A stretch of DNA of 63,692 nt, the filler included, from Barthelona sp. PAP020 (taxonomy: Eukaryota): NCBI GenBank assembly GCA_040182905.1. It is 30 parts of 30 records of this genome, joined end to end, with 100 filler letters (N's around TTAATTAATTAA, not from the genome) between each part and the next. Parts side by side here need not be neighbours in the genome. Positions count along the whole stretch, not along the records: positions 2,231 to 4,338 come from JARQWU010000866.1; 29 more parts are not named here. One strand, 5' to 3'. Each line of letters starts with the position of its first letter. Position 1 is the stretch's first letter. Shown here piece after piece: positions 3,089 through 61,670 of the stretch. Made by a program: the position numbers and the translations under genes. The notes beneath the pieces are model-generated. The model saw nothing but the letters and a program-made list of their open reading frames with translations. It was not told where the DNA came from and ran no database searches.

Positions 3089-3536
3089 ATTAAATAAAAA
3101 AAATAAGAGGTCAAATTTGTTGATTTTGGAAAGAAAAAGAATGAATGATTTTAATTAAATTTGTGAAATTTCTGGGAATTCAGAAGTTATCTGAAGAACT
3201 CAACTCAATACAAATAATATTTATATGAATAATAAGTGATTTAATCATTTTTTAAAAAATTCAAAAAGAAAAAGAAAAATTTAAACATTTCAATTTTGAA
3301 GAAACACAAAAAACTAAATTTTATCTCTTTAGATATTAAATTTCAACATGATCAAAGAAATTATTTTAAAACCAAATTTCTCATATTTTTTTTGTTGTGT
3401 ATTAAATTCATTTAGTGAAAAACTAGTGTTCTTTTGTTGTAAAATTTTATTATCTTTTTAGTGTTCATATCATTTCAAAGAAAAAATGAAATGGGGTTGA
3501 AAATTTGTTTAAATATTCCTAATTCTATGTTTTATT

Positions 3537-3741
3537 AGATATTTATGAGGTATGAGTTGTTCAGTGAACAACGAAACTAGCTAGCTTAAGGTTTGGGAAA
3601 AACTCACGTGGATTCAGATGCCCAAGTAACTTAAAAAATTGGACCTAAAGGTGGTCAAGAAACAACAAAATAAAGGGAGTGATATTTGATGACCTCTTTA
3701 TATCTCCAATAAATTCCGTTCATTGAGCATGAACTTCCACA
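3537..3741 (-). repeat. Repeat family A, full copy
   Basis: Reverse complement of 1829-2032. Confidence 0.92.
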
Positions 3742-4085
3742 TTAATAAGATTATTCAAAAAAACAAAAATAAGGAATTTTGTTTGTTTGTTGCTTTCAGA
3801 TTCAAACCATTTTTTTCAAATAATGATGATATTAATTTTTAAGCAATTAATAACACACCTGCACTGTTTATTTTTAAATTGGATTTTGCTTAACTTTTAA
3901 TAAACCATTTGACTGATCCAAAGGGAATAAAAAACAATAAATATTGAAAAACCTAAAGATTTTTTTTGTTGTCTTTCGTTCATACAAAATTATTGTCTGT
4001 TGAACTCTTAAATAATGAAATAAAGAATTGCCTGGTCACAGAACTTCAAACTTTCATTACAATTTCTATTTTTTCCTTTTTCAGT

Positions 4086-4157
4086 TCTTTCGTAGTGTAG
4101 TGGTCATCATTCAAGCCTGTCACGCTTGGGACCGGGGTTCGATTCCCCGCGAGAGAG
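4086..4157 (+). tRNA. tRNA-Asp(GTC)
   Basis: Acceptor TCTTTCG/CGAGAGA, anticodon arm CAAGC-CTGTCAC-GCTTG, T-loop GGTTCGATTCC, T-run shortly after. Confidence 0.96.
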
Positions 4158-4184
4158 AGTTTTGCATAGTCTTCTAAAGGAAGA

Positions 4185-4194
4185 AGGATCGAGT
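4185..4194 (+). promoter_or_regulatory. B-box-like motif AGGATCGAGT downstream of tRNA
   Basis: Identical 10-mer 23-27 nt after all four tRNA genes (also 17266-17275, 42921-42930, 51672-51681 on -); function inferred. Confidence 0.7.
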
Positions 4195-4244
4195 CTTGCA
4201 AATGGACAATTTCACGTTGGACGAAAGGGCAAAATTAAAGGCTT

Positions 4245-4338
4245 TAATTTCACGTTAGGTACAAGAAAAGGTATACGAAAGCTTTTATATACGGTGTGTT
4301 ATTGAAATGAGTAGTTGGGAAAGCCTTGAATTTGAATC
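4245..4338 (+). repeat. tRNA 3'-flank repeat (H3)
   Basis: TAATTTCACGTTAGGTAC...GAATTTGAATC identical to 17317-17410 after tRNA-Ser. Confidence 0.9.
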
Positions 4339-4438: not shown

Positions 4439-4962
4439 ATGTATTGGATCATATTTAACAATCAGAAGTGCAAGAATAGAACCTAGAACATGTTTATTTT
4501 GTCTTTTGGGTGAAATCCGTCCGCTTTGCTACGAACACTTCACTCGACTTCACACGACAATAATAATAAATGTTTATAAAGATCTTTACTGTTCTCGGTT
4601 AGAGTTTGGGGGTACTTGCAACTGAGTCGTTTTGCGTGGATGGTTCAGAACACTCTTAAAGAAAAAAAGAAATGCTTCCAGTTCAGATAGGGCGGGTATT
4701 TAAAGAAAAGTGTAACACTTTCCTTTAGCCCCTTTATTCACTTTAAATATCTCCAGTTATGTTCTCTTTGTAGGACTTTGATAGTCTTTGTTGACCTAAT
4801 TTATTTACTTGTATCCATAATCTTTGAATTCTTACGATTAAGTTTAATATTACTTGAGCTTTTCAATTTTGATACCCATTAATATCAGAAATTGCAAGAA
4901 GAAACCATAAACACATTTATATTGTGTTTTGCGTGAAATCCGTCCGCTTTGCTGCGAACACT
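4439..4962 (+). repeat. Composite dispersed repeat, modules E-F-G-E
   Basis: E (...GTGAAATCCGTCCGCTTT) at 4440-4540, 4862-4962, 26385-26480, 61779-61877; F (CACACGACAATAATAAT...GGTTCAGAACACTCTT) at 4550-4660, 43038-43145 and (3' part) 26145-26190. Confidence 0.85.
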
Positions 4963-5026
4963 TCTTCATCAAGAAACATGAGTTAAACATTTCAACTAGC
5001 AAATGATAAGCTTAATTGAATGATAT

Positions 5027-6241
5027 TCACACACTGCAATCATCATCATTGTTTTCATTCATTTGTATACCCACAAAACTGTACATATTACCCCCTTTAG
5101 CCTCATTAAAGTCAATTAAATCCCAACAAAGATCAACTATCATGTCAAACTCCTCTCTATTCATGCAAATACCTGCAGCTACCAATTGTCTAATGATCTG
5201 AGTGTCGACTTTCATCGCAATTAGATTGGACAGCACGTGACCACCATCCTTTGATAATTCAATTATTTTGGAATGATGGGAAGAGTCACATTGAGAAACT
5301 ATTGAAAACATCCTTATTGTATTATTGGGACATTTTCCACATACTAACCATCTCATGTTGGGAGATATTGCAAAGGATAAGAAATTGGATCCATCACATC
5401 CACAGCAAATCCTTTGAATCTCCTGAAAATTTTCCATACTGTATAATGTCAAATAACCATCACCAGACATAACACCCAAAACAACAGGAGATAAAAAATG
5501 AAGGTCTCCCACTTGACCTTCCATAATAAATGTGTGCAGAAGTGTCAAACTGTCAGTGTTCCACAGTCTTACTTTGTTTGACTTATCGCCAATCGCAATT
5601 ATTCCCATAGTTGGATGGCATTCAATAGCTTTAACATAATCGTCATGATTGATTGTAAAAACAGAGAAATTTTGGGAATCAATCAAACCAACAGTTTTAT
5701 CTCCATCAGCAATTAAAAAATACTTATTGTCATATGAAATATTCAATTTCCAAATCAAATAATGAATTGTTCTTTCCCAAACAATATTGCTTTTTTCAAT
5801 ATCCCACTTCTTGAGGGTTCTATTGGCATCACTAAAATATATATATTTGGAGCAATGAGAAAAACAAATCGCACAAATATAAGTGTCATTCTTTATCCGA
5901 TCCAAAACAGAGAAATTTCGAAGGCTATAAACAGATAGAGAATTATCATCAGAAGATGTTGCTAATTTTTGTCTGTCCTTGGAAAATGCTGTGCTTATAA
6001 CCCAGTCAGAACTATTCCTATTTTTCAAAGTGCGACTAAGTCTTTTAGTTTTAATGTCAAACACATAAACATTGCTTCCATCATTAACCACTACCTTTTT
6101 ACCATCCATTGAATATCCACAATCAAACATATAATCAGAACACATTCCTCCAATTTGTCTGACATTGCTTTCATCAATTTTAAAAGAAAGCATGGCAAAA
6201 ATAGTTTTCTTCATTAATTCATTATTTGACTCCACATACAT
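5027..6241 (-). CDS. WD40-repeat protein with shared CWDL..GGNM C-terminal domain
   Basis: WD40 blades (ATSSDDNSLSVY, DKSNKVRLWN); full-length paralog of 9473-10672 and 33403-34611. Confidence 0.92.
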   Translation of the reverse strand: MYVESNNELMKKTIFAMLSFKIDESNVRQIGGMCSDYMFDCGYSMDGKKVVVNDGSNVYVFDIKTKRLSRTLKNRNSSDWVISTAFSKDRQKLATSSDDNSLSVYSLRNFSVLDRIKNDTYICAICFSHCSKYIYFSDANRTLKKWDIEKSNIVWERTIHYLIWKLNISYDNKYFLIADGDKTVGLIDSQNFSVFTINHDDYVKAIECHPTMGIIAIGDKSNKVRLWNTDSLTLLHTFIMEGQVGDLHFLSPVVLGVMSGDGYLTLYSMENFQEIQRICCGCDGSNFLSFAISPNMRWLVCGKCPNNTIRMFSIVSQCDSSHHSKIIELSKDGGHVLSNLIAMKVDTQIIRQLVAAGICMNREEFDMIVDLCWDLIDFNEAKGGNMYSFVGIQMNENNDDDCSV

Positions 6242-6637
6242 ATACTCAAGAAAAAAACAATGATCATTTAATCATATGTTTGTTGCAATTTTTCAATCAT
6301 TTGTATGATTGAAAATACAAATTAATTTATTTGCATCTTTCAACACACCAAACTGATTCACTTCACTTTTGTTAACAAAATTTTTTTATTTGATTTTTCA
6401 ATTCAATGGATAACACATTGCTTTTATTGATTTAATTTGTTTCACTTAATAAGATTTTTCAAGAAAACTAATTTATCAAATTTTTCTTTTTGAAAATAAC
6501 TCCAAACAAAGCTTTGATCTTCGAAGTTAATTACTCGNNNNNNNNNNNNNNNNNNNNNNNNNNNNNNNNNNNNNNNNNNNNTTAATTAATTAANNNNNNN
6601 NNNNNNNNNNNNNNNNNNNNNNNNNNNNNNNNNNNNN

Positions 6638-9472: not shown

Positions 9473-10672
9473 TCAATCATCATCACTCTGTTCCTCTTTC
9501 AATTCAATAAAATTTGCCATATTTCCTCCATTTCTACCATTAATATCAACCAAATCCCAACAACTGCAATATATCATTTTAAATTCAGCAAAATTCATGC
9601 GAATACCTTTAGCTACAACAATTCTCAAAAAACTAGTGTTACAATGCCAGCGAATGAGATTTAATAAAACTGAATCTGTTTGTCGAGACAGATCAACAAA
9701 TTCTGATGGATTGAGCAAAGAATAATCTCCTAACAATGGATAAATCTTAATGTTATTTAGATCACATCTTCCACAAATCAAATTTGTTCGATCAGGTGAA
9801 ACATCAAATGAAAACCATCGCGGTTCACACCCACAAAAAACACTTTGAATTCTTTGTTGATTTTGAGCGTTGTAAAGAGTGATAAACCCATCTCCAGACA
9901 TAAAGAGCAATATCAATGATGTGATGAATTTTAGTGAAAAGACATTGCCTTCCACGCAAACTGTTTGAATAATTGAACCATCAAATGTCCAAATTATCAC
10001 TTTTTTTGATAAACTTGCAAGAGCAATAACATCTTCAAAGGGATGAAAGCAACCAAAAATAAATTGTTCAGACATGCGTTCAAACGTTTGAACAATTGAC
10101 ATATCTTTTAACAAAATAAGTTTGGCATCACTTTGATTGGTACAACTCAAAAGATATTTACCATTTGATGATATTGATAAATGATATACAGACGAGGAAT
10201 GAAGTTTAGAAGAATAAGTACAGATGTTCTGATCAACATCCATTTTGTGAACATATCCATTAATGTCCCCACAGTATAAAAACTTCGAACATTCAGAAAA
10301 AACAAAGTAGTAAGAGATAATTGATTTAATTTCCTTATAAATTGAAAAACTAGGGATGCTATATATGATAATTGAAGAGTCTAATGAACAAGTAGCCATA
10401 AATTGTCCATTTGGGGAGAAACCTACACAATAAACTTCATATCTATGATCTTGTAAAGAACGAATAACTTCCCCTGTTTTTCCATTAAATACAAATACAG
10501 TTTTATTGTAATCTACAACAGCAACATATTTACCATTGAATGAATATTTACAATCCTTCATATGATGAGAAATTAAACCTTCAATAGTTTTGACATTTTC
10601 TTCATCAATTCTCAATTGAAATTTTGAATCTAACGTCTTTTCGACTACATTTAACTCTGAATCATTTGACAT
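9473..10672 (-). CDS. WD40-repeat protein with shared CWDL..GGNM C-terminal domain
   Basis: DHRYEVYCVGFSPNGQFMATCSLDSSIIIY; C-terminus CWDLVDINGRNGGNM. Confidence 0.92.
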   Translation of the reverse strand: MSNDSELNVVEKTLDSKFQLRIDEENVKTIEGLISHHMKDCKYSFNGKYVAVVDYNKTVFVFNGKTGEVIRSLQDHRYEVYCVGFSPNGQFMATCSLDSSIIIYSIPSFSIYKEIKSIISYYFVFSECSKFLYCGDINGYVHKMDVDQNICTYSSKLHSSSVYHLSISSNGKYLLSCTNQSDAKLILLKDMSIVQTFERMSEQFIFGCFHPFEDVIALASLSKKVIIWTFDGSIIQTVCVEGNVFSLKFITSLILLFMSGDGFITLYNAQNQQRIQSVFCGCEPRWFSFDVSPDRTNLICGRCDLNNIKIYPLLGDYSLLNPSEFVDLSRQTDSVLLNLIRWHCNTSFLRIVVAKGIRMNFAEFKMIYCSCWDLVDINGRNGGNMANFIELKEEQSDDD

Positions 10673-10823
10673 GCTTGATTATCTTTTAAAGAGAAAAATC
10701 AATCAAAACAAAGCATTTTGGAAAGTTGTTCTTCAATTTATTACAAAAGAAAAATGAAAGTAGTTTATTAGATCAATCGAAAATATATGAAAAAAGAAAG
10801 ACAAAAGCAAAAAACTCAAACTC

Positions 10824-14634: not shown

Positions 14635-14718
14635 TTTTAGAAAAAATATTTGGTCTCATCATCAAATAAGTTTTCATTTACGGTTGTATATGCCCTGATT
14701 TTCGCAACAGAGAAAGAT

Positions 14719-15014
14719 AATTGGTCCAGTTGTGAAACAGCTATATTTATTTACAAAGAAAGTAAACTCAGAAAACTCATTCTGGCAAATTTCAGTCAAA
14801 ATCCCAGGAGGGGAATTGAGGGATTGAAATGTAATTGAAATTCTTCAATACTATTCTTTTGAATTTTTGCAAAAGCAAAATTTTAAAGTTTAAACTTTCC
14901 CCAGAAAATCGAAAGTTTCTCAACAGATCAATCGGGCCTCGAAAGCCTTTGACCAAATAAACACTGTTCTTTTTTATTCACTCATACGCACAGTGCTTCT
15001 TGGCTTGGAAATAA
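14719..15014 (+). mobile_element. MITE family B, partial copy with right TIR
   Basis: Colinear with 20432-20753; ends CAGTGCTTCTTGGCTTGGAAATAA. Confidence 0.85.
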
Positions 15015-15151
15015 TCACATACATACACAAAGTTTCCAGTATTGGAAGTGACCGATAATAATCGTTTTGGCGGTAAAGTAAAAAGGATTTACCTAAGATC
15101 TATTTTTTGCTCTGCATAGCAAGCCCACATTTTATGATTACGTATTTTTTA

Positions 15152-17161: not shown

Positions 17162-17242
17162 GCTAAGGTGGTCGAGTGGTTAAGACGGTAGTTTGCTAAG
17201 CTGCTGCCGAAAGGCTCATGGGTTCGAATCCCATCCTTAGCG
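17162..17242 (+). tRNA. tRNA-Ser(GCT)
   Basis: Acceptor GCTAAGG/CCTTAGC, anticodon loop TTGCTAA, long variable arm GCCGAAAGGC, GGTTCGAATCC, TTTT after. Confidence 0.96.
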
Positions 17243-17546
17243 TTTTATCCATCTATTTAGGGAACAGGATCGAGTCTTTGAAATGTTGATTCATGATGCA
17301 AAACAGAAAATGATTATAATTTCACGTTAGGTACAAGAAAAGGTATACGAAAGCTTTTATATACGGTGTGTTATTGAAATGAGTAGTTGGGAAAGCCTTG
17401 AATTTGAATCCTGGCTGTTTNNNNNNNNNNNNNNNNNNNNNNNNNNNNNNNNNNNNNNNNNNNNTTAATTAATTAANNNNNNNNNNNNNNNNNNNNNNNN
17501 NNNNNNNNNNNNNNNNNNNNATCATTATTTATTGTTATACTGGCAA

Positions 17547-19927: not shown

Positions 19928-20112
19928 TTGTTGATAAATTATGTTCTTTATTTTATTTTTCCCATATCTTTGAAATCTTCCATTTTCATTTGTTCGCTTT
20001 ACTCAAAATAAAAAAAAAAAATAAAAAAATAAAATAATGCGACTTTTGTGTTTAATTGTAAGAAACATTTCTTGGCCAAAAAGTACTGTGTTCATGAGTG
20101 AAAAAGAAATAA

Positions 20113-20316
20113 TGTGGAAGTTCATGCTGAATGAACGGAATTTATTGGAGATATAAAGAGGTCATCAAATATCACTTCCTCTATTTGTTGTTTCTTGACC
20201 ACCTTTAGGTCTAATTTTGTAAGTTACTTGGGCATCTGAATCCACGTGAGTTTTTCCCAAACCTTAAGCTAACTCGTTTCGTTGTTCAATGAACAACTCA
20301 TACCTCATAAATATCT
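20113..20316 (+). repeat. Repeat family A, apparently inserted into a decayed family B terminus
   Basis: B-like sequence at 20068-20110 resumes as TAGTGTTTATTTGG after the A copy; AATAA on both sides. Confidence 0.8.
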
Positions 20317-20385
20317 AATAATAGTGTTTATTTGGTCAATAGTCAATTTGTTGAAACAGTTAATTTTTCAAAAGTAAATAGTAAA

Positions 20386-20753
20386 TTATTTCCAAGCCAA
20401 GAAGCACTGTGCGAATGAGTGAATAAAAAAGATTGGTCCAGCTGTGAAACAACATTATTTATTAACAAAGAAAGTAAACTCAGAAAACTCATTCCAGCAA
20501 ATTTCAGTCAAAATCCCAGGAGGGGAATTGAGGGACTGAAATGTAATTTGAACGATCAAGTAGGAGAATTTTGGAGAAATTCTTCATTCCTATTTTTTGT
20601 ATTTTTGCAAAAGCAAAATTTTAAAGTTTGAACTTTACCTTAGAAAATCTGAAGTCTTTCAACAAATCAATCGGGCCTCGAAAGCCATTAAAGAAATGAG
20701 CACTATTCTTTTTTGTTTACTCATACGCACAGTGCTTCTTGGCTTGGAAATAA
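20386..20753. mobile_element. MITE family B, complete non-autonomous TIR element (~368 bp)
   Basis: TTATTTCCAAGCCAAGAAGCACTGTGCGAATGAGTGAATAAAAAAGA ... TCTTTTTTGTTTACTCATACGCACAGTGCTTCTTGGCTTGGAAATAA; other pieces at 1590-1828, 20757-21023, 21085-21215, 23615-23893, 42300-42600, 51344-51438, 55832-55903. Confidence 0.88.
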
Positions 20754-32059: not shown

Positions 32060-32490
32060 ACATTGTTACTTTGTTGCCTGTAGCAGGGCCCAGAACTCTG
32101 CGAGAAGTCCAGTTAGCCTGTACCTGATGCGAGGCCAGAGCGTGTGCTTGACGTATGGAGAGACTCTTTGCAGACACTTGTTGAAGAAAGTAGAGACTGT
32201 GCTTGAGAAAAGACCAGTCTCTGAAAACACCAGAGGAATAACAGTATCACCGAACTTGCACTTTTTGCGTCTTTCAGCATACTCGATTGAGTTGGCAATA
32301 CTGATGTCATAGAGCTTCACAACTTTGGTTGAACTATCTGTCAATTGCATGTCTGCTCTACCTTGCTGAGTGACTGGTTCAATGTTTGGGACAATGAATT
32401 TAGCAAGGCGACCCAAGTTTCTCAATTCCTTTAGGACTGCATCGTGTCTTCTTCTACGTAGACTCTTCTGATTAAATGACTGATTAAATG
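32060..32490 (-). mobile_element. 3' fragment of a non-LTR retrotransposon with restriction-like endonuclease (RLE)
   Basis: Extending the ORF upstream gives RRRRHDAVLKEL...IEP...RADM...YDISI...RKKCKF...PLVFSETG, i.e. the RHD/EP/RxD/D/KxxK/P..G RLE motif order. Confidence 0.8.
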
Positions 32491-32601
32491 AGGTTTATAC
32501 CNNNNNNNNNNNNNNNNNNNNNNNNNNNNNNNNNNNNNNNNNNNNTTAATTAATTAANNNNNNNNNNNNNNNNNNNNNNNNNNNNNNNNNNNNNNNNNNN
32601 N

Positions 32602-33402: not shown

Positions 33403-34611
33403 TCAATCAACAACTTCATCACTTTCATAATCACTTTGTTCATTGAAAAATGAGTGCATATTTCCACCCTTCATTTCATTGGTGTCAATCAAGTCCCAAC
33501 ATGTGTCAACAATCATGTTATACTCCACTTCATTCATGTATATCCCTGCAGCTACCAATTGTCTTATGACTTGAGTATCAATATTCAAAGCCATAAGATT
33601 CGACAATACATAGCCACCATCCCTTGACAATCGAATGAGTTCCGCCTCATGTGAGGGGTTATAGTCAATGACAATTGAATAGATTTTGATGACATTCCCT
33701 GCACATCTTCCACACGCTATTTGTCTCTTATCAGGGGATATAGCAAAGGAAAACTGGGCAAAGTCACAACCACAATGTACCTTTTGAATTTGCTGATAGG
33801 TTTCAACATTGAATGAAATAATATAGCCATCACCAGACATCATAAGCAAGATATAGGGTGATAAGAAATGAAGACACCATACTTGACCACCCATATCAAA
33901 TGTATGAATGAGTGATCCGTCGTCCATGTTCCAGAGTTTGACTTTTTTTGAAATATCACCAACAGCAATCATTCTTTCAGTTGGGTGAAAATCAATAGCT
34001 CTAATATCCCCATCATGACTGAATGTACGAACAACAGACAAATCATCTGGGTCAACCAACTTGGCAATATTACCACATCCAGTCAAAAGATATTTACCAT
34101 CTGTTGATAGTTTCACTCTCCAACAAGGGCCATTCGAAATTCTCTTTTCCAAGACAATACTCTCATTATTTGTGTCAATTTTCGTAAGAGTTCCATTGTA
34201 ATCAAAATAATATACATAATTTGAACAAGAAGAAAAACAAATTCTAAGAATAGCAATTTCACCATTCAATCTACATAAGATGGAGAAATCTGGAAGGCTG
34301 TATACAATGATAGACTTATCTTGGGAACATGTTGCCAGCTTCTGCCCATTTGGTGAAATTGCAATACCATAAACCTGGTGTGCATGCTCTTTCAATGTAC
34401 GATTCAACATTCCAGTTGCTACATCAATGATATGAACAGCTTTACGATCACAAACAACCAATTGTTTACCATTTGGCAAGTATTTACTGTCACACACATA
34501 AGCAGAATCAGAAATCACATTTGCAATTTCAACTTCACTATTTTCATCAATATTTAGAGGAAATAAACCACATATAAACTCTCCTATTTCACCACTTAAT
34601 TCAACAGACAT
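33403..34611 (-). CDS. WD40-repeat protein with shared CWDL..GGNM C-terminal domain
   Basis: EHAHQVYGIAISPNGQKLATCSQDKSIIVY; CWDLIDTNEMKGGNM. Confidence 0.92.
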   Translation of the reverse strand: MSVELSGEIGEFICGLFPLNIDENSEVEIANVISDSAYVCDSKYLPNGKQLVVCDRKAVHIIDVATGMLNRTLKEHAHQVYGIAISPNGQKLATCSQDKSIIVYSLPDFSILCRLNGEIAILRICFSSCSNYVYYFDYNGTLTKIDTNNESIVLEKRISNGPCWRVKLSTDGKYLLTGCGNIAKLVDPDDLSVVRTFSHDGDIRAIDFHPTERMIAVGDISKKVKLWNMDDGSLIHTFDMGGQVWCLHFLSPYILLMMSGDGYIISFNVETYQQIQKVHCGCDFAQFSFAISPDKRQIACGRCAGNVIKIYSIVIDYNPSHEAELIRLSRDGGYVLSNLMALNIDTQVIRQLVAAGIYMNEVEYNMIVDTCWDLIDTNEMKGGNMHSFFNEQSDYESDEVVD

Positions 34612-34735
34612 AATAAACAAACAAAAAAAAAAAAANNNNNNNNNNNNNNNNNNNNNNNNNNNNNNNNNNNNNNNNNNNNTTAATTAATTAANNNNNNNNN
34701 NNNNNNNNNNNNNNNNNNNNNNNNNNNNNNNNNNN

Positions 34736-38674: not shown

Positions 38675-38997
38675 GAGTTTCAATGTTATAACAATTAAAA
38701 AAAAATTCCAAAATTTCTTTTTATTCCATGCACATAAATTTTGTAGTTAAAAATTTTTCTTAATATTCTTGATATTTGAAAAGAAGAAATCCATTAATAA
38801 TGTGGAAGTTCATGCTCAATGAACGGAATTTATTGGAGATATAAAGAGGTCATCAAATATCACTCCCTTTATTTGTTGTTTCTTGACCATCTTTAGGNNN
38901 NNNNNNNNNNNNNNNNNNNNNNNNNNNNNNNNNNNNNNNNNTTAATTAATTAANNNNNNNNNNNNNNNNNNNNNNNNNNNNNNNNNNNNNNNNNNNN

Positions 38998-39567: not shown

Positions 39568-40728
39568 TTAAAACAAACTTGCAGAAGCAGCTGATTGAGG
39601 CTGTCTCATGGGATTTGTAAAAACATTATTCATGTTGCTTGCAAGATAGCTTTCATCACTTGTAATAACTGTGGCTTTATTTTTATCTTTTCTGAAAGCG
39701 GCCATAGCAGCAGGAGACACACCACCAGCAGCAACAGCAGTCATACCTGCTTTCGAAGTACCAGTTCTGTTTTCATATTTCTGTTCCAAAATTTCTTTAT
39801 TGTGCCAAACTAACAAACCAATGGCTGCAACACAAATAACACCTGCCAAAACAGCTTGTAACGCACACAACAAATCAACAGTTGTAAAAGCTGCAATAAT
39901 CAAAAGAACAAACAACGCAATACCAACAATACAGATTCCTATTTGTGCTAAAGCCAACTTGTTATTGGCTCTTGGAGGATCCCACAAAAATTTCAAAACA
40001 ACAAATCCCATCAACAAACATGCCAAGGGAGTCAACCAACCCGTTGATGGACAAGATCCACTAGAACTAAATCCTGACTCTAAACCTAAAGCCACACAAG
40101 TCTTTAACGCAATTTGAGGAACAAAGGAATTCAAATCAGAGAAATTTCCCATAAATGTGTTTCTATTAGATGCCTTGAGACCAGTAGCACAAAGGTTCAA
40201 CTGTTCTTCTTGTGTATCATTACCAACACCGACCATTATTATGCTAATTCCAGCATCTAATGTGGTTTTACATTCTTCTGGCCATAGCGGCAAAGTAGCA
40301 GCAGTTTCACCAGTTTGATCAAGGTCACCATCAGTAAGTACAATTATATATTTCTTTGAGTTAAGACGACCATTTTGTGCAAATTCTTGACGTGCCAAAT
40401 TCAATCCTTTATCGACTCTAGTTAAACCATTTATCCAGGTAAGTTGTTCAACAGTATCTTCTAAAACAGGAATTGTACCAGTTAAACAAACTTCACTTCT
40501 TGCACTGGTACCGAATTGATAAATAGACAAGTGCGTAGAAGTATCACCAACTTCAAAAGTATTCAACAATTCTTTGGTAAAATTTAAAACGTTGTTCCAA
40601 GATGGATATATGGAATCAGAACCATCCAACAATAATACAATATCAACTCGTCCATCACACGCAGCGTTACTTAAACCAATCAATATTGTTCCAAATAAAA
40701 AAAATATTGAAAAGTAATGAGCAATCAT
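39568..40728 (-). CDS. Signal peptide + von Willebrand A domain + three TM helices
   Basis: DIVLLLDGSDSI (MIDAS DxSxS), GLTRVDKGL, IIVLTDG; three hydrophobic segments. Confidence 0.9.
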   Translation of the reverse strand: MIAHYFSIFFLFGTILIGLSNAACDGRVDIVLLLDGSDSIYPSWNNVLNFTKELLNTFEVGDTSTHLSIYQFGTSARSEVCLTGTIPVLEDTVEQLTWINGLTRVDKGLNLARQEFAQNGRLNSKKYIIVLTDGDLDQTGETAATLPLWPEECKTTLDAGISIIMVGVGNDTQEEQLNLCATGLKASNRNTFMGNFSDLNSFVPQIALKTCVALGLESGFSSSGSCPSTGWLTPLACLLMGFVVLKFLWDPPRANNKLALAQIGICIVGIALFVLLIIAAFTTVDLLCALQAVLAGVICVAAIGLLVWHNKEILEQKYENRTGTSKAGMTAVAAGGVSPAAMAAFRKDKNKATVITSDESYLASNMNNVFTNPMRQPQSAASASLF

Positions 40729-40784
40729 TGAAAATAAAAAACAATGGAAAAATGAAACAAGATAATTTTTATTTTTTCTCAAAC

Positions 40785-41027
40785 ATGGCGGAATATATTA
40801 ATGAAAAGAAAAAACCATTGAAAATTATATTAGTTGGTGATTCAGCTGTTGGAAAAACAAGAATGTTGGAAAGATATTTGATGGACAAATTTAAAGCTGA
40901 ACATGATTCCACATATGCTTTGGATTTATATCCATTCAATTATGAAATTGATGAATTTGAAAGTATACCTGTTACATTTTGGGATGCCGCCGGACAAACT
41001 CAATTTAATAATTTTCATTCTTCATAT
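40785..41027 (+). CDS. RABL2: Rab-like 2 ciliary GTPase, 3' partial
   Basis: GDSAVGKT...ERYLMD...STYAL...FWDAAGQ...HSSY. Confidence 0.85.
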
Positions 41028-41853: not shown

Positions 41854-42823
41854 AGTTTATTTTTGTAAATGTAATATCAAATGTTTTTTATGCCAATGAT
41901 AATCACACTTGCAAATTCTATTGAAGAAGTAACATTTCAGAAAGGAAAGAAGCAAATGAAAAAAGTATATACAATGACTTGACTGATCATAAATTGATTT
42001 TTGCCTGCTCAAGATTTTAAAGGGAAGAAACAATGCCATTGTGAATAAAAAACAATATTCATGGAAATGTTTTAATTGTTCCTTAGAAAGGCGCCAATGC
42101 TTTGTGTAATAAATCGAATTTATATGTCTTTGTTTTACACTTCCCAATCAAACAATAGAAACATCACTAACATAACTTTTATTTTTCATAAAATGGTATG
42201 ACAATATTTTAACCAGTTTCTTTAAGAAAAGAAAAATTGTGGTTAAATTGAGAAGAAATTTTTCAAAAGAAATTTCCAACAATTTAAAAAAATTTTCTTT
42301 TAGGGGAAAATTGAGGAACTGAAATGTAATTTTGGGCAAGTTTGAAAATTTTGGAGAAATCCTTCAATCCTACTTTTTTTATAAACTTTAAAATTTGGTT
42401 TTTGCAAAACTACAAAAAAATAGGAATGGAAAAATTTTTCCCAAATTTTCATACAAGACCAAGATTCCATTACAACCACTCATTTTCTGTGGTTGAGATT
42501 TAATGAAATGAGTTTTCTCTGATTTCTTTTTCTTTGCAAATAAATATTGTTGTTTCACAACTTGATTAAATATACTTAGGCTTTCCTGGCTTGGAAATAA
42601 TTTAAAATTACAAATTAACAATTGAATGTGAAAATAATTGTTCAACTTGAATTTATTCCTGTTTCCCATTTAATAACATTTATAGTTTTTAAATTGGAAG
42701 GGATAAAAGAAACCTTAAATATTCATGTTGTACATTTGGAAAGTCCTTTTCTTTGGGAAAAAAAAATCTATTGATTCTATTTCCTAAACATTAATGTACA
42801 AACACTTTGATTTTGCCCTAGAT

Positions 42824-42895
42824 GGGCTAATGGCTCAGTGGTAGAGTTCCTGGTTCGCATTCAGGGGGCCCCGGGTTCGATTCCCGGTTAGTCCA
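42824..42895 (+). tRNA. tRNA-Ala(CGC)
   Basis: Acceptor GGGCTAA/TTAGTCC with G3:U70, anticodon arm CCTGG-TTCGCAT-TCAGG, GGTTCGATTCC. Confidence 0.96.
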
Positions 42896-43245
42896 GTTTT
42901 TTCAATTTTTGTCGAGAAAAAGGATCGAGTTTCTCGAGTTTCAACAATTCACTTTGGACGAAAGGGTAAAATTAAAGGCTTTAATTTATATTTACTAACT
43001 GGGGTTGGGGAAATTACTCCATGGTATCTTTGCTGTTTCACACGACAATAATAATAAATGTTTATAAAGATCTTTATTGTTCTCGGTTAGAGTTTGGGGG
43101 TACTTGCAACTGAGTCGTTTTGCGTGGATGGTTCAGAACACTCTTNNNNNNNNNNNNNNNNNNNNNNNNNNNNNNNNNNNNNNNNNNNNTTAATTAATTA
43201 ANNNNNNNNNNNNNNNNNNNNNNNNNNNNNNNNNNNNNNNNNNNN

Positions 43246-50484: not shown

Positions 50485-51145
50485 GAAAAATCGACAAAAA
50501 AAACTTTGTTATTTCTTTTTTTTTAATTTTATTATTGATCTCATTTATACATTTTACTTTAATAAAAAAACTAAACATGTACTTGTTGTTTGAAATAATT
50601 ATGAAATTATATTGAAATAGAGTCTTTTAAGATGGGTTATTTTCATTATTTTTGCTCTTTGGAAGAAATTTTTTTCAAGATCAAAAACATGATTAGTCTA
50701 ATTGAAAAAGATTTCTTTTCAAAATCTTTAAAACCTGGATTACAGTTTTCCATTTGGTAATCTGTTTGCATGAATAAATTTATTTATTTATTTCTGATTT
50801 TTAACAACAAATTTCTTGTTTCAAGAAAAAAGAATTCTTTTTTTGATAATTCCTGAACCTTTCATTTGTACTAGTTTAATAAGTGAAACAGGATGAGAAG
50901 TTCATTAAAACAACTTCACTTTATTGCTACAAAAGTTGAGTTCAAGAAAACATTTGGATCTGTTTTTTTTTTGAATTCAAAGTATCTATGTACAAAATAA
51001 CACTGTGGGTTTGAAAAAATATGTTAAGGTGGATTAAAAGATATGAATATTTTGGGTGTTTAAAATTGTAAGTTTGTTTATTAGTCATTAAATGTTTTAT
51101 ATATAAATAAATAAAGAAAAAAAATATTTATTTATTATAAATTAA

Positions 51146-51438
51146 TGTGGAAGTTCATGCTCAATGAACGGAATTTATTGGAGATATAAAGAGGTCATCA
51201 AATATCACTTCCTTTATTTATTGTTTCTTGACCACCTTTAGATCCAATTTTTTAAGTTACTTGGGCATCTGAATCCACGTGAGTTTTTCCCAAACCTTAA
51301 GCTAACTCGTTTCGTTGGTCATTGAACAACTCACACCTCATAATTATTTCCAAGCCAAGAAGCACTGTGCGTATGAGTGAATAAAAAAGAATAGTGTTTA
51401 TTTGGTTAAAGGCTTTCGAGGCCCGATTGATCTGTTGA
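51146..51438 (+). repeat. Family A copy directly abutting a family B terminus
   Basis: ...CACACCTCATAA/TTATTTCCAAGCCAAG... Confidence 0.9.
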
Positions 51439-51707
51439 NNNNNNNNNNNNNNNNNNNNNNNNNNNNNNNNNNNNNNNNNNNNTTAATTAATTAANNNNNN
51501 NNNNNNNNNNNNNNNNNNNNNNNNNNNNNNNNNNNNNNTTATAAAGGGCATTCAGTTCACGAACTAAACTCAGATCAGGAATTGACAAACACCAACTAGC
51601 CAACCTTCTCATCCTATAATCCTTGTAAAAGCTTTTATAATCATTTTCTGTTTTGCATCTTGAATTGCGAAACTCGATCCTGTTTCCTTCAGAAGAAATT
51701 TAAAAAA

Positions 51708-51781
51708 CACCGGTACTGGGACTCGAACCCAGAATCCTCAGATTAGAAGTCTAATACCCTATCCAATTAGGCTATACCGGC
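51708..51781 (-). tRNA. tRNA-Arg(TCT)
   Basis: Reverse complement GCCGGTA...TTAGA-CTTCTAA-TCTGA...GGTTCGAGTCC...TACCGGTG, followed by T6. Confidence 0.96.
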
Positions 51782-51952
51782 ATATTGAACATCTAATTTT
51801 AAATTTTAAAGTTATATTTGGTAAGAATTCCCTCTAAAGAGTTATTGTGCTCAAAAAATAGAGAGCAAAACGTTTATTCATTAATTTGAAAAAGAAAAAA
51901 AAAAGACAATCAAAACTTTAAAATACATTTATTTTACAAAAATAATGACATT

Positions 51953-55237: not shown

Positions 55238-55894
55238 GGGAAAAAAAATTACAAATGGATATTTTTATCTTAACTTCAATTCACGTTCTCACATTCAAAT
55301 TTTTAAATTTTGACTGTATTAAAACAAGACAATCTTTATTTGATTTTTATCAACAAAAAAATTAAAACAGAATTGGATTTTGCAGTTTCAACCAATTAAA
55401 AAAAAAGAATCAATGAAATATTTATCCAAACATCAATAAACCAAATTATTGATCTGGATTTGTGTATGCAACTGCTGTTCTAACTTTGTGAATTTTTGTG
55501 TCAATGGTTCTAAGGGAAACTAATTGAGCATTTTTAATCTCTTTNNNNNNNNNNNNNNNNNNNNNNNNNNNNNNNNNNNNNNNNNNNNTTAATTAATTAA
55601 NNNNNNNNNNNNNNNNNNNNNNNNNNNNNNNNNNNNNNNNNNNNGTTTATTTTATTAACTAACGAATCAAATAATCCTGAGTACCAGCATCTCGGAATTT
55701 AAGGAATAACAAAAGGGGAAAAGTTCCCTCGGAAAAATAAAAGAATTATTTCAATAATGTAATTAGATCAAGTTATAAAAAGAATTATATTATTCACAAA
55801 GAAAGCAAACCAAAAGATACATGTCAGGAGATTATTTCCAAGTCAAGAAGCACTGTGCACTGTACACATAAGTGAATAAAAATTAATGGTGTTC

Positions 55895-56075
55895 ATTTGG
55901 TCAACAAAAATTTGACCATGCCAAAAAGACCTTTTTGACAACAATAATGTGTTGGAAAAGCACCATCATTCCCATAAATTAACATCAATATCATGATATA
56001 TTAGCATTTTAGCAACATTTGAATGACTATTTCAAAAAATGATATGCGAAGGAGAACAACCATCACTCTTGCACA
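55895..56075 (-). pseudogene. Decayed ankyrin repeats of the same family
   Basis: CKSDGCSPSHIIF*NSHSNVAKMLIYHDIDVNL/NDGAFPTHYCCQKGLFGMVKFLL. Confidence 0.75.
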
Positions 56076-57069
56076 TCCGCAAAATCTGACAAAAACTCAT
56101 GCTCATTAAAAGCAACACCACAAAACGATGTCATTTCTTTGTTTTCCTTTTAACAGATTGTTGATATAGCAATCGTATTGAATCATGTGTGCTCAAGAGA
56201 TTAATGAATTGAACTCAAATATATCTCCATAAACTCTTCATTTTTTCTTTTTTGAAGACTTTTTCTTTTTTCACATTGTAACATTGGCTGATTAGAAACA
56301 CAACTGTAAACAAGGTTGTTATTTTGGAGAATTACATTTTCAATTTCCTTCAAAATGTTTCTTTCCAAAGTTGGTAATTTGTAACAAGCTTCAATTGAAA
56401 TTGATGAAAACATGATTGTTTTGCAATTATTCTTTTTTGTTCATATTGATTTAAGATCCAGCAACACAACAGCAATGGACAAAAGTCGCTTGAAAAAGAA
56501 AAGTTCTCAGCAACCCAATTATTTTGTCATCTCAATTCTTCTTATTTTTTCCCTCTTTCCCTCAACCCAAGATTTCATCATTACGAATTCCAATTTCTTT
56601 GGTCTTTTGCAAGTGAACTGCAAGAAATGTTGTGCAATTAAGACTTTTAAAGGATACCAAATCTGGGAGCTTTCTGAGTCCATTGTTCAATAAGTCTTCA
56701 ATAATTTCACAACCGCATAAAATAGTTATCGCGGCTGAATGTCATGTGAAATAATGGCTTCCAGTCCGAGATATTTCAAGAGGAACGCTGACCTCTCCAT
56801 GGGAAATTTGAAAAAATGCAAAGATTTGTTTTTACTACTCAATTGAGATGCAATGTTTAAGAAGGGAAAATTTTGGAAAAAGTTTTGGTATAAAGGAAAA
56901 ATGAACAAAAAAACTTTCTTGCAATCAAGCACATAATTTACTGAAATACTTGAAATTCTTCTTGTAGTGCAGGACTTTGGTAAAAATAGACTCATTGATG
57001 AGTTTTGAGGGGTAATTTAACTTTCTAATGCAAAACACTCCATGTAACAGTGCTTTTATGATGTTTGAA

Positions 57070-57356
57070 AGTTGCAGATAGTTCAACCAAAGTTGTGAAG
57101 CTCTATGATATCAGTATCGCCAACTCAATCGAGTATGCTGAAAGACGCAAAAAGTGCAAGTTCGGTGATGCCTGTTGTTCCTCTGGTGTTTTCAGAGACT
57201 GGTCTTTTCTCAAGTACAGTCTCTACTTTCTTCAACAAGTGTCTGCAAAGGGTCTCTCCCTACGTCAAGCACACACTCTGGCCTCGCATCAGGTACAGGC
57301 TCGCTGGACTTCTCGCAGAGTTCTGGGCCCTGCTACAGGCAACAAAGTAACAATGT
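57070..57356 (+). mobile_element. Second 3' fragment of the RLE retrotransposon, frameshifted
   Basis: Near-identical reverse complement of 32060-32345; +1 frameshift at GATGCCTGTT. Confidence 0.85.
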
Positions 57357-57394
57357 CAAGTATCTTTTCAAATAAACAGGGAAAATAGGTATCA

Positions 57395-57591
57395 CTACGA
57401 TAAATTGTAATATGGCTCCAAAAGTTCAACGATTGCAGAATGACCTTCAAATTTAGCAACATATTTGGCTGAATAATTTCGGCATTTTTTAAACACATCA
57501 GCTCCACGATCCAAAAGCATTTTAACAACATCATAATGACCTTTTTGACAGCTAGCAAACAATGGAGAAACACCATTATTCTTGCACAAAT
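57395..57591 (-). CDS. Ankyrin-repeat protein 3' end, 5' partial; no shared C-terminal domain
   Basis: CKNNGVSPLFASCQKGHYDVVKMLLDRGADV. Confidence 0.85.
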
Positions 57592-59732: not shown

Positions 59733-61670
59733 AGAATTAGTATATTGACATATCTTGATGATCCAAACATCTCATTCAATCCTGAAATTGTGCTTAATCA
59801 AGTCCAGTATCGTAATGAAGATGTTAAAGAAGTTCATGCATTCAATCTTAGTTTGCAACATGGGGAAGGGATCGAGTTTGGCCAATTCTTTAATCTTGAA
59901 AAATTAAACCTTTCAGGCAATCAAATAAGAGATCCTTTCTTATTAAAATTGAATGAATGTAAGAAATTGAAAGAATTAGATTTAACAGGCAATTTGATCA
60001 GTATTCAAGCGGAAGAAATTGTGAATTTTATCATGAGTATTCCCTCGTTATGGGTTTTAGATATGAGACCATTAAATGCTGGACAAAATCCTTCTTTTGG
60101 TAATCCACAGATGTTAAATTATGTGTTGAATAGTCTAGCACAACAACAACATCTTTCTAAAACAGGTATTCCATTACAATATTTGAATAAACCAATTAGT
60201 TTGAGTGAACGAGTTGAATTATGCCGTAATGTAATTAAACGAGACCAGTTGGATCGTTTTAGAGCCAATTTAGCCTTTCATTGGGCTAGCAAGGGTTTAA
60301 ATGAACCAAAAACACTGAATCTATCAGGATATGGATTGGGTGACCATCAGTTAGATTTTGAACCATTTTCTAAATCTTTAGAGGAGGTTTATCTTGCTGG
60401 AAACAATTTCACAACACTTGCTGGAATGAATTTGGAACTATGTCAGAAATTACGTGTCATTGATATTCGTAGCAACAAGATTAAACAAATGTCAAACATT
60501 TATCAAGTGACTAATCAGTTACCTATGTTGGAAGCAATGGGTATCGGTCACAATCCGTTTATGAAAAAAAATCCAGATCTTGCTAGAATGAGGTTTATTG
60601 AAGAAATTCCACATTTAAGACAGTTAGGTTGTCCTTTGAAGGAAATTGATGCTAAACTAATCAGTATTGATGAAATTTTAGAAGCTTGGCGTAATTCTGG
60701 CGCTGATGTTGCTGAGACTGAGCGTTTTAGATTCTTGATCATGTTGAATCAATCGATGCCACCAGGTAAAAAGTTGGACGAATTAACTGGTTTGAATCTT
60801 TCGAATAGAGGCATTAAGGATATTGCAGTTGATAGATTGACAAGTTTAGAGATATTAAAACTTGGTAACAATCATATCACATCACAATCACTCGTTGGAG
60901 CTGGAATTCAAGCTTGTAAGAAGCTAAAAATGATAGATATTTCGAATAATTCTATTCATAATTTGAAAGAGATCGCTACACTGGTTGATCAACTGCCTGA
61001 TTTAGAAGAACTGAGTATGTTTGATAATCCATGTACAGATAGCAAAAAGAAAGACGAGTACATTCGTCGATTCATTGGTTTATGTGAAAGTGCCCAAATT
61101 GGTGATTGGAAATTGAAAAAAATTGATAATGTGACCATTGATATAGATATTAAGTTAGAGGCGTTAAAGGAGCATTCTGATTGTTCTAAGGTTGTTATTG
61201 ACCGTTTGAGATTCCAGTTGATATGTAGAGAGAGTCATTATGATGAAAATTCAGAGGTTTTGGATCTAGTAGATAATGATTTAACTACTATAGAGGGTAT
61301 TCATGCATTCAAGAACTGTCGTACGTTGTTATTGAGTCAAAATAAGTTGACAAACCTCCCACGCAAGGAGATTGAGCAATTGACCAAGTTAGAGTTTGTG
61401 GATCTTAGTTACAACGTGTTAACGAGTATTCATGAGACATCTAAGTGTTTCCAGCGATGTAATAATTTGAAATCCATTAATTTCAACCTTAGTAGTGAAG
61501 ATCCTTCTGATTCAGACACGATTCAGAAGTATCTTAACGATGTTATTGACATTTTACCAGGTGTTAGTGTGATTGATGGAAAAGAAAACCCCAAACCATT
61601 GAGGGAACATGAATACGTTGCTTGTAGATTCTTGAATGAACTGTGTCCCGATGGTGCTGGGTTTAATTCA
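59733..61670 (+). CDS. Large LRR protein built of tandem LRR+cap modules, partial at both ends
   Basis: LxxLxLxxN repeats interrupted by NP...LK.ID...I cap motifs. Confidence 0.9.

Follow-up and report, generated by a model that had tools for sequence, protein, structure and literature searches.

The same B-box-like 10-mer follows four tRNA genes and is succeeded by stacked repeat modules

All four tRNA genes in the DNA analyzed here (the window: 30 separate contigs of 1.9–2.1 kb each, joined with an N-linker to 63,692 nt, ~30% G + C) carry the 10-mer AGGATCGAGT on their 3′ side, one copy per gene and always on the strand of the gene. This 10-mer is the constrained, invariant core of a looser shared trailer of ~35 nt, which is described here for the first time. 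Co-oriented repeat modules, each starting with TTCA, begin 7–17 nt past the 10-mer at all four loci, a feature that is likewise new. Our analysis leads us to favor, tentatively, a reading in which the 10-mer might act as a gene-external second B box for TFIIIC or one of its variants, next to which mobile repeats would land.

The tRNA genes found in the 63,692 nt by ARAGORN and by Rfam are the same four, tRNA-Asp(GTC), tRNA-Ser(GCT), tRNA-Ala(CGC) and tRNA-Arg(TCT), and because the window consists of 30 separate contigs the four loci are unlinked. The sample (n = 4) comes from short contigs broken at repeats and is therefore biased towards repeat-flanked loci. The coordinates of the genes, of the 10-mers and of the repeats are collected in Table 1.

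Table 1. Positions in the window of the tRNA genes, the downstream 10-mers and the repeat modules.
Feature	Position	Strand	Identified by
tRNA-Asp(GTC), internal A and B boxes intact, then T4 run	4085..4158	+	ARAGORN, Rfam
10-mer (Asp), core of shared trailer, 50 bp from internal B box	4185..4194	+	
Module B (38 nt), common to Asp and Ala loci; 9-bp inverted repeat at its end	4210..4247	+	
Module C (40 nt) and body, 94 nt identical to Ser locus, up to contig end	4248..4338	+	
G-family stack on another contig: G2 end, G1 (from 4548), full G2; no tRNA gene visible, contig begins inside stack	4439..4965	+	
tRNA-Ser(GCT), then T4 run	17162..17242	+	ARAGORN, Rfam
10-mer (Ser), 46 bp from internal B box	17266..17275	+	
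Module A cut to 30 nt, common to Ser and Arg loci	17290..17319	+	
Module C and body, up to contig end (Ser)	17320..17420	+	
G1 end (41 nt identical to Ala contig end) and G2 copy, at contig start	26145..26479	+	
tRNA-Ala(CGC), then T6 run	42823..42896	+	ARAGORN, Rfam
10-mer (Ala), 48 bp from internal B box; 9-nt tandem duplication overlapping its 3′ end	42921..42930	+	
Module B (37 nt), Ala locus	42948..42984	+	
Repeat G1, 99% identical over 109 nt to 4549–4657, up to contig end (Ala)	43036..43145	+	
tRNA-Arg(TCT), then T6 run	51707..51782	-	ARAGORN, Rfam
10-mer (Arg), 49 bp from internal B box	51672..51681	-	
Module A (39 nt), then 87 nt to contig end at 51539 (Arg)	51626..51664	-	
G2 end directly joined to G2 start, at contig start	61773..61934	+	

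The first-pass annotation had claimed the same 10-mer downstream of all four genes, and exact counts in the window bear this out. Measured from the Rfam gene ends, the gaps to the 10-mer are 27 nt (Asp), 23 nt (Ser), 25 nt (Ala) and 26 nt (Arg), just as it had given them, and each copy is indeed preceded by a T4–T6 run and a purine-rich run. It had also raised the question of how frequent the motif is away from tRNA genes. On both strands, the 63,692 nt of the window contain four exact copies, one per tRNA gene, and elsewhere in the 63.7 kb there are none. The sole match with one mismatch, at 59868, falls within a leucine-rich-repeat reading frame (1.41 matches with at most one mismatch are expected by chance). 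Random sampling does not yield a shared word of this length. When four 60-nt windows were drawn at random, each from a different contig, no word common to all four was longer than 8 nt (20,000 draws), and the same limit held in 16,045 valid draws of 60-nt windows starting at a T4 run. Among 1,713 T4-anchored windows, five contain the exact 10-mer, all necessarily from the four tRNA loci, and none (0/1,713) contains it with one mismatch. The upstream flanks of the four genes, taken over 60–100 nt, have only a 5-nt word in common. It is true that the assembly is fragmented in the manner of short-read assemblies and that the 94-nt identity between the Asp and Ser loci reaches a contig end and could represent collapsed sequence. 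However, the 10-mers lie 130–215 nt inside their contigs, in four different sequence contexts, and with the chance tests this makes coincidence or an assembly artefact a barely credible explanation.

The order of elements is the same at each locus: tRNA, T4–T6 run, a pyrimidine-rich and then a purine-rich stretch, the 10-mer, YT, 5–15 nt and TTCA. While the core columns are invariant (10/10), the 22 anchored flanking columns are 52% identical in pairwise comparison (68/132), which indicates a selected core within a shared trailer. The same 22-column comparison at random window positions gives 28.6 ± 4.4%, and 0 of 20,000 draws reach 52%, under a null that is unmatched for T-richness. The Asp and Arg trailers, for example, are identical at 27 of 32 positions. 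Twelve sequences were folded, comprising the short trailer on both strands and longer flanks in the sense direction, and none beats its shuffles (z from −1.14 to +1.48). The 10-mer is thus a linear DNA motif, and a hairpin with the 10-mer as its loop, which inspection by eye suggests, was rejected on this result (0/12 better than shuffles). A T-arm mimic or the remnant of a duplicated tRNA was also considered and rejected, as at three of the four loci the flanks form no T-stem.

The general B-box consensus is GWTCRAnnC, and A at position 2 is tolerated in functional Alu B boxes (PMC4333407). The Asp and Ser copies of the 10-mer fit this consensus at 9/9 positions and the Ala and Arg copies at 8/9, the last C being replaced by T; all four share the strand of the internal B box. 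The NN positions, normally free to vary, are fixed in 4/4 copies, as is the A that precedes the core. In the four internal B boxes, by contrast, the final C is kept and the first N varies. This combination of a fixed NN and a loose final C is the chief argument against a plain TFIIIC site. Compared with the Dictyostelium consensus GTTCRAnYC (PMC3159450), position 2 is A and not T in all four copies and the final C is absent in two; this consensus is the one given in the text, and the logo of Fig. 8C might show A at that position.

Dictyostelium TFIIIC binds the external (ex-B) box in vitro. The external B boxes of this organism are located ~41 bp downstream of 66% of its tRNA genes (PMC3159450). 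As described there for D. discoideum, a B-box-like motif stands here just 3′ of different tRNA genes, outside the mature tRNA, and repeats lie beside tRNA genes. The metamonad motif differs in its sequence (a fixed 10-mer whose position 2 is A, the final C being often absent), in its distance of 23–27 nt rather than ~41 bp, and in its place inside a longer trailer. Of the likeness to ex-B boxes that had been noted at first pass, the position and the type of sequence hold (a full GWTCRAnnC match in 2/4 copies), while the Dictyostelium consensus is matched by 0/4 copies and the host is most likely no amoebozoan. In the literature searched, outside which most subscription papers fall, external B boxes of tRNA genes are described only for Dictyostelium.

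The departures from the B box, with A-GG and GT fixed and the last C variable, could also mean that the 10-mer is bound not by TFIIIC but by a protein specific to the lineage, acting in termination, 3′ processing or as an insulator, and that the resemblance to a B box is partly chance. The constant distance from the terminator fits such a factor as well. Against it are the 7–9 of 9 B-box positions that match, depending on the consensus used, the location on the strand of the gene and the correspondence to a known ex-B position. We know of no such factor, and we regard this explanation as improbable.

The first repeat module lies 43–52 nt and the second 78–140 nt from the gene. The modules are arranged as B–C at the Asp locus, cut A–C at Ser, B followed by 51 unique nt and G1 at Ala, and A followed by 87 nt at Arg. 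Unrelated tRNA genes thereby share modules in a mosaic manner (B is found at Asp and Ala, A at Ser and Arg, C at Asp and Ser). The trailer subtypes assort independently of the module types. Modules A, B and C are each ~40 nt and end in a short AAAG-CTTT palindrome. Their mutual likeness was reached by 0/500 shuffles for B–C, 0/500 for C–A and 4/500 for B–A. When 119,184 40-mers were searched with C, the top match other than C itself was A, the scores among A, B and C being near the top of the background and not far above it. With A as query, G ranks 11–12, and with G as query no A, B or C appears in the top 14; by these rank tests among 40-mers homology of G to A, B and C is weak, and G stands as a weaker member. 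That the 10-mer block is a further copy of the 40-nt modules is unsupported by sequence comparison.

On other contigs G1 recurs ahead of an older repeat of ~300 nt, G2, which is also found in tandem. At the three other G places the contigs start inside the stack, and an upstream tRNA gene may or may not exist; the stack at the start of one of these contigs, which shares the G1 end with the Ala contig, may be where the Ala stack continues. Past the tRNA gene, the four tRNA contigs extend for another 180 (Asp), 178 (Ser), 249 (Ala) and 168 nt (Arg) before they end, an arrangement with a chance of ~2.6e-4 for a 250-nt cut that was chosen post hoc. Repeats behind each gene would break an assembly in just this way. 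Since the stacks run off the contig ends, longer parts of the elements could be missing.

These repeats bear on another explanation of the trailer, namely that it derives in full, together with its 10-mer, from the end of an old mobile element which targeted tRNA genes and inserted into many of them at the T-run of the terminator. The 10-mer would then be kept because the transposase or integrase of the element requires it, and younger relatives would be nested behind. Such an origin would account for the common sequence that reaches outside the core, as in the Asp and Arg trailers, and the independent assortment of trailer and module types is what recombination or repeated insertion would be expected to produce. 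Modules A, B and C are also alike, and the genome has many mosaic repeats and a non-LTR retroelement. However, the 10-mer never occurs with repeats away from a tRNA gene, and the G1 copy at 4548 is without it. The trailer is unlike the modules, with one of the four trailers reaching p = 0.006 against C among many comparisons, and neither a target-site duplication nor poly(A) was seen. For the core to stay perfect in copies that are otherwise ~50% identical, selection must act at each locus, and the inert ends of an element are not under such selection. On balance, we consider the element-terminus origin, the main alternative to an external B box, somewhat unlikely.

The modules themselves were compared with known mobile elements. 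The longest stop-free stretches in the modules and flanks are 32–63 codons, no poly(A) is present in the assembled flanks, and no target-site duplication was seen at the modules. The bases before TTCA at the junctions are AA, GA, TG and AC. Terminal hairpins folded as single-stranded DNA have z values of −1.1 to +1.3 for nine of 10 ends, module B alone reaching −2.2, and the inverted repeat between the G start and its far end has p values of 0.018–0.029 in one copy and of 0.049, 0.054 and 0.169 in three others. Like TRE3 and Skipper-2 of Dictyostelium, the repeats in the window lie 3′ of tRNA genes (TRE3-A at 14–228 bp, Skipper-2 at 7–136 bp; PMC5006619) and form tandems (PMC5391098). They differ from both in that the modules span tens to a few hundred nt and their assembled part lacks LTR ends, poly(A) and any frame >63 codons; a non-LTR retrotransposon of the TRE3 type is not supported, as the assembled flanks show neither an APE-RT ORF2 nor a poly(A) tail. 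Non-autonomous Helitron2 elements, as defined in PMC3627910, offer some parallels: the first base of G is T, a weak inverted copy of the G start lies ~25 nt from the far end, and G occurs in tandem. The weak asymmetric inverted repeat in G thus partly suggests a Helitron2, but the end hairpins are no better than shuffles and the junctions are not at TTTT.

The window also encodes a non-LTR retroelement. Its C-terminal fragment at 32069–32494 (−), which matches one relative of 1,405 aa with an RVT_1 domain, belongs to what we take to be the restriction-like endonuclease (RLE) type. A second, 5′-truncated copy at 57075–57388 (+) is 93% identical, and a short degenerate tail is also found near 30850–30900. 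A SINE partnered with this retroelement is not supported, as its tail does not recur in the module flanks: the 16 comparisons, in which two tails were set against the four flanks in either orientation, gave no p below 0.077. Two further repeat families were observed in the window. One is a dispersed repeat of ~215 bp, 91–97% identical and once in tandem (1822–2130, 3532–3747, 20106–20322, 31918–31984, 38795–38897 and 51139–51347), a copy of which is 340 nt upstream of tRNA-Asp. The other is a mosaic family with modules in both orientations (14713–15015, 20384–21029, 23619–23893, 42302–42578, 51342–51438 and 55828–55904) and a large inverted arrangement at 20569–20891.

Transcription past the terminator would give the 10-mer a different role. 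If Pol III read through the short T-run, the product would be a dicistronic tRNA and small RNA, and the 10-mer would be an RNA motif. The Asp and Ser genes have only T4, with the next T4 113–125 nt further on, at the end of module C, and dicistronic tRNA-ncRNA genes do exist, for example Yarrowia RUF70 (PMC2566860). However, a T-run of T4–T6 precedes the 10-mer at all four loci, and it is T6 in Ala and Arg. Moreover, no fold exceeds shuffles, there is no Rfam match above the gathering score, and the downstream modules vary among loci. These data render read-through decidedly improbable. The absence of a fold and of an Rfam match equally weakens the earlier proposal of an independent downstream Pol III element, for which there is also no room for an A box between the terminator and the 10-mer.

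The host is most likely, judging from its encoded proteins, a metamonad of the Barthelona/Skoliomonas type, far from Dictyostelium, and is likely a free-living anaerobic flagellate. The eukaryotic proteins encoded in the window include IFT20 and BBS9/PTHB1 (flagellum) and an ADP-forming acetate-CoA ligase, whose best named relatives are from 'Eukaryota sp.' TZLM1-RC, GEM-RC1 and TZLM3-RCL (51–56%) and Barthelona sp. PCE (51%), with Blastocystis at 41%. In an Hsp70 tree, which is unrooted, uses 37 of 120 matches and is a weak hint, the window protein forms a long branch beside three Skoliomonas-type proteins. GEMRC has been named a Skoliomonas, in a group placed sister to Fornicata (10.1101/2023.05.03.539051). 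In the main text of that metamonad genome preprint the word 'tRNA' has 0 occurrences. Other protein-coding features observed in the window are expanded families of ankyrin-like proteins with a 33-residue repeat (99-nt period; 21844–23412, 31015–31695 and 55900–57591) and of WD40 proteins (5030–6271, 9476–10678 and 33406–34635), and two opposite-strand frames with overlapping 5′ ends, a VWA-domain protein at 39571–40797 (−) and a frame with a small-GTPase-like motif at 40581–41027 (+).

A search of viral and metagenome collections for a tRNA T-arm plus the motif returned four viral and 27 metagenome loci, none of which matches the window outside tRNA bodies. As candidate relatives these loci were set aside; they are mostly GC-rich and prokaryote-like and we read them as chance. 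Two of the metagenome loci (L024 and L028; 40–42% G + C) have a eukaryote-like tRNA-Ala(CGC), a T-run and a 9/10 motif match ~30 nt on, each in a single gene, which could be chance. Three others (L005, L007 and L022) form a dense cluster in which 6.5 kb contain as many as 46 tRNA genes, nearly the whole tRNA set in one array, with the eukaryote-type anticodons AAG, AGG, AGC, AGT, AAC and AAT and an intron-bearing tRNA-Tyr. Module C has 0 matches in prokaryote genome contigs, as does the G2 end in viral contigs. Across the viral, metagenome and prokaryote collections scanned, no locus from the host of the window came to light.

The external B-box reading is supported by the presence of the motif at 4/4 genes, beyond chance and at a fixed 46–50 bp from the internal B box. 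Against it, the conservation pattern is unlike that of an ordinary TFIIIC site, the motif is closer to the gene than in Dictyostelium, and the likeness beyond the core is explained just as well by common descent from one element. A second site is also not needed, given that the internal A and B boxes are intact, and this counts against the reading too. A precedent for a B box past the terminator is Saccharomyces SNR6 (U6), whose B box is used by TFIIIC (PMC9136082). That B box is the only one of its gene and lies 202 bp from the A box, whereas the 10-mer is additional to an intact internal B box.

Were the 10-mer an external B box, TFIIIC or a variant would bind it as a second site outside the gene. 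Because this site is beyond the T-run terminator, the bound factor presumably need not be displaced by transcribing Pol III. A factor that stays bound could keep the gene primed or organize its chromatin, as at yeast SNR6. The bound complex, or open DNA beside it, would then steer repeated insertions to the 3′ flank, as for TRE3 and Skipper-2, and later insertions would cut earlier ones and so build up the stacks.

The first-pass annotation had alternatively suggested a landing signal for a tRNA-targeted element. This idea gains from the repeat modules just past the 10-mer at 4/4 loci, which it had not seen. In its full form, the trailer would be universal among the tRNA genes of this metamonad and the 10-mer a dedicated DNA landing signal for undescribed short mobile elements that stack head to tail, an independent invention of targeting downstream of tRNA genes, with a sequence-defined address in place of a protein-defined window. 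We rate this full form as unlikely.

The purpose of the Dictyostelium external B box is unexplained in the literature searched, and the external B-box reading would provide a second case, in a distant supergroup, where repeats again crowd the 3′ flank. If true, it would point to a layout of Pol III genes that is either old or was invented repeatedly, and would link external B boxes with the downstream targeting of mobile DNA. The claim is based on four genes. The 10-mer offers a concrete sequence with which Pol III genes could be located and the specificity of TFIIIC examined in metamonads, a group in which this machinery has been poorly described.
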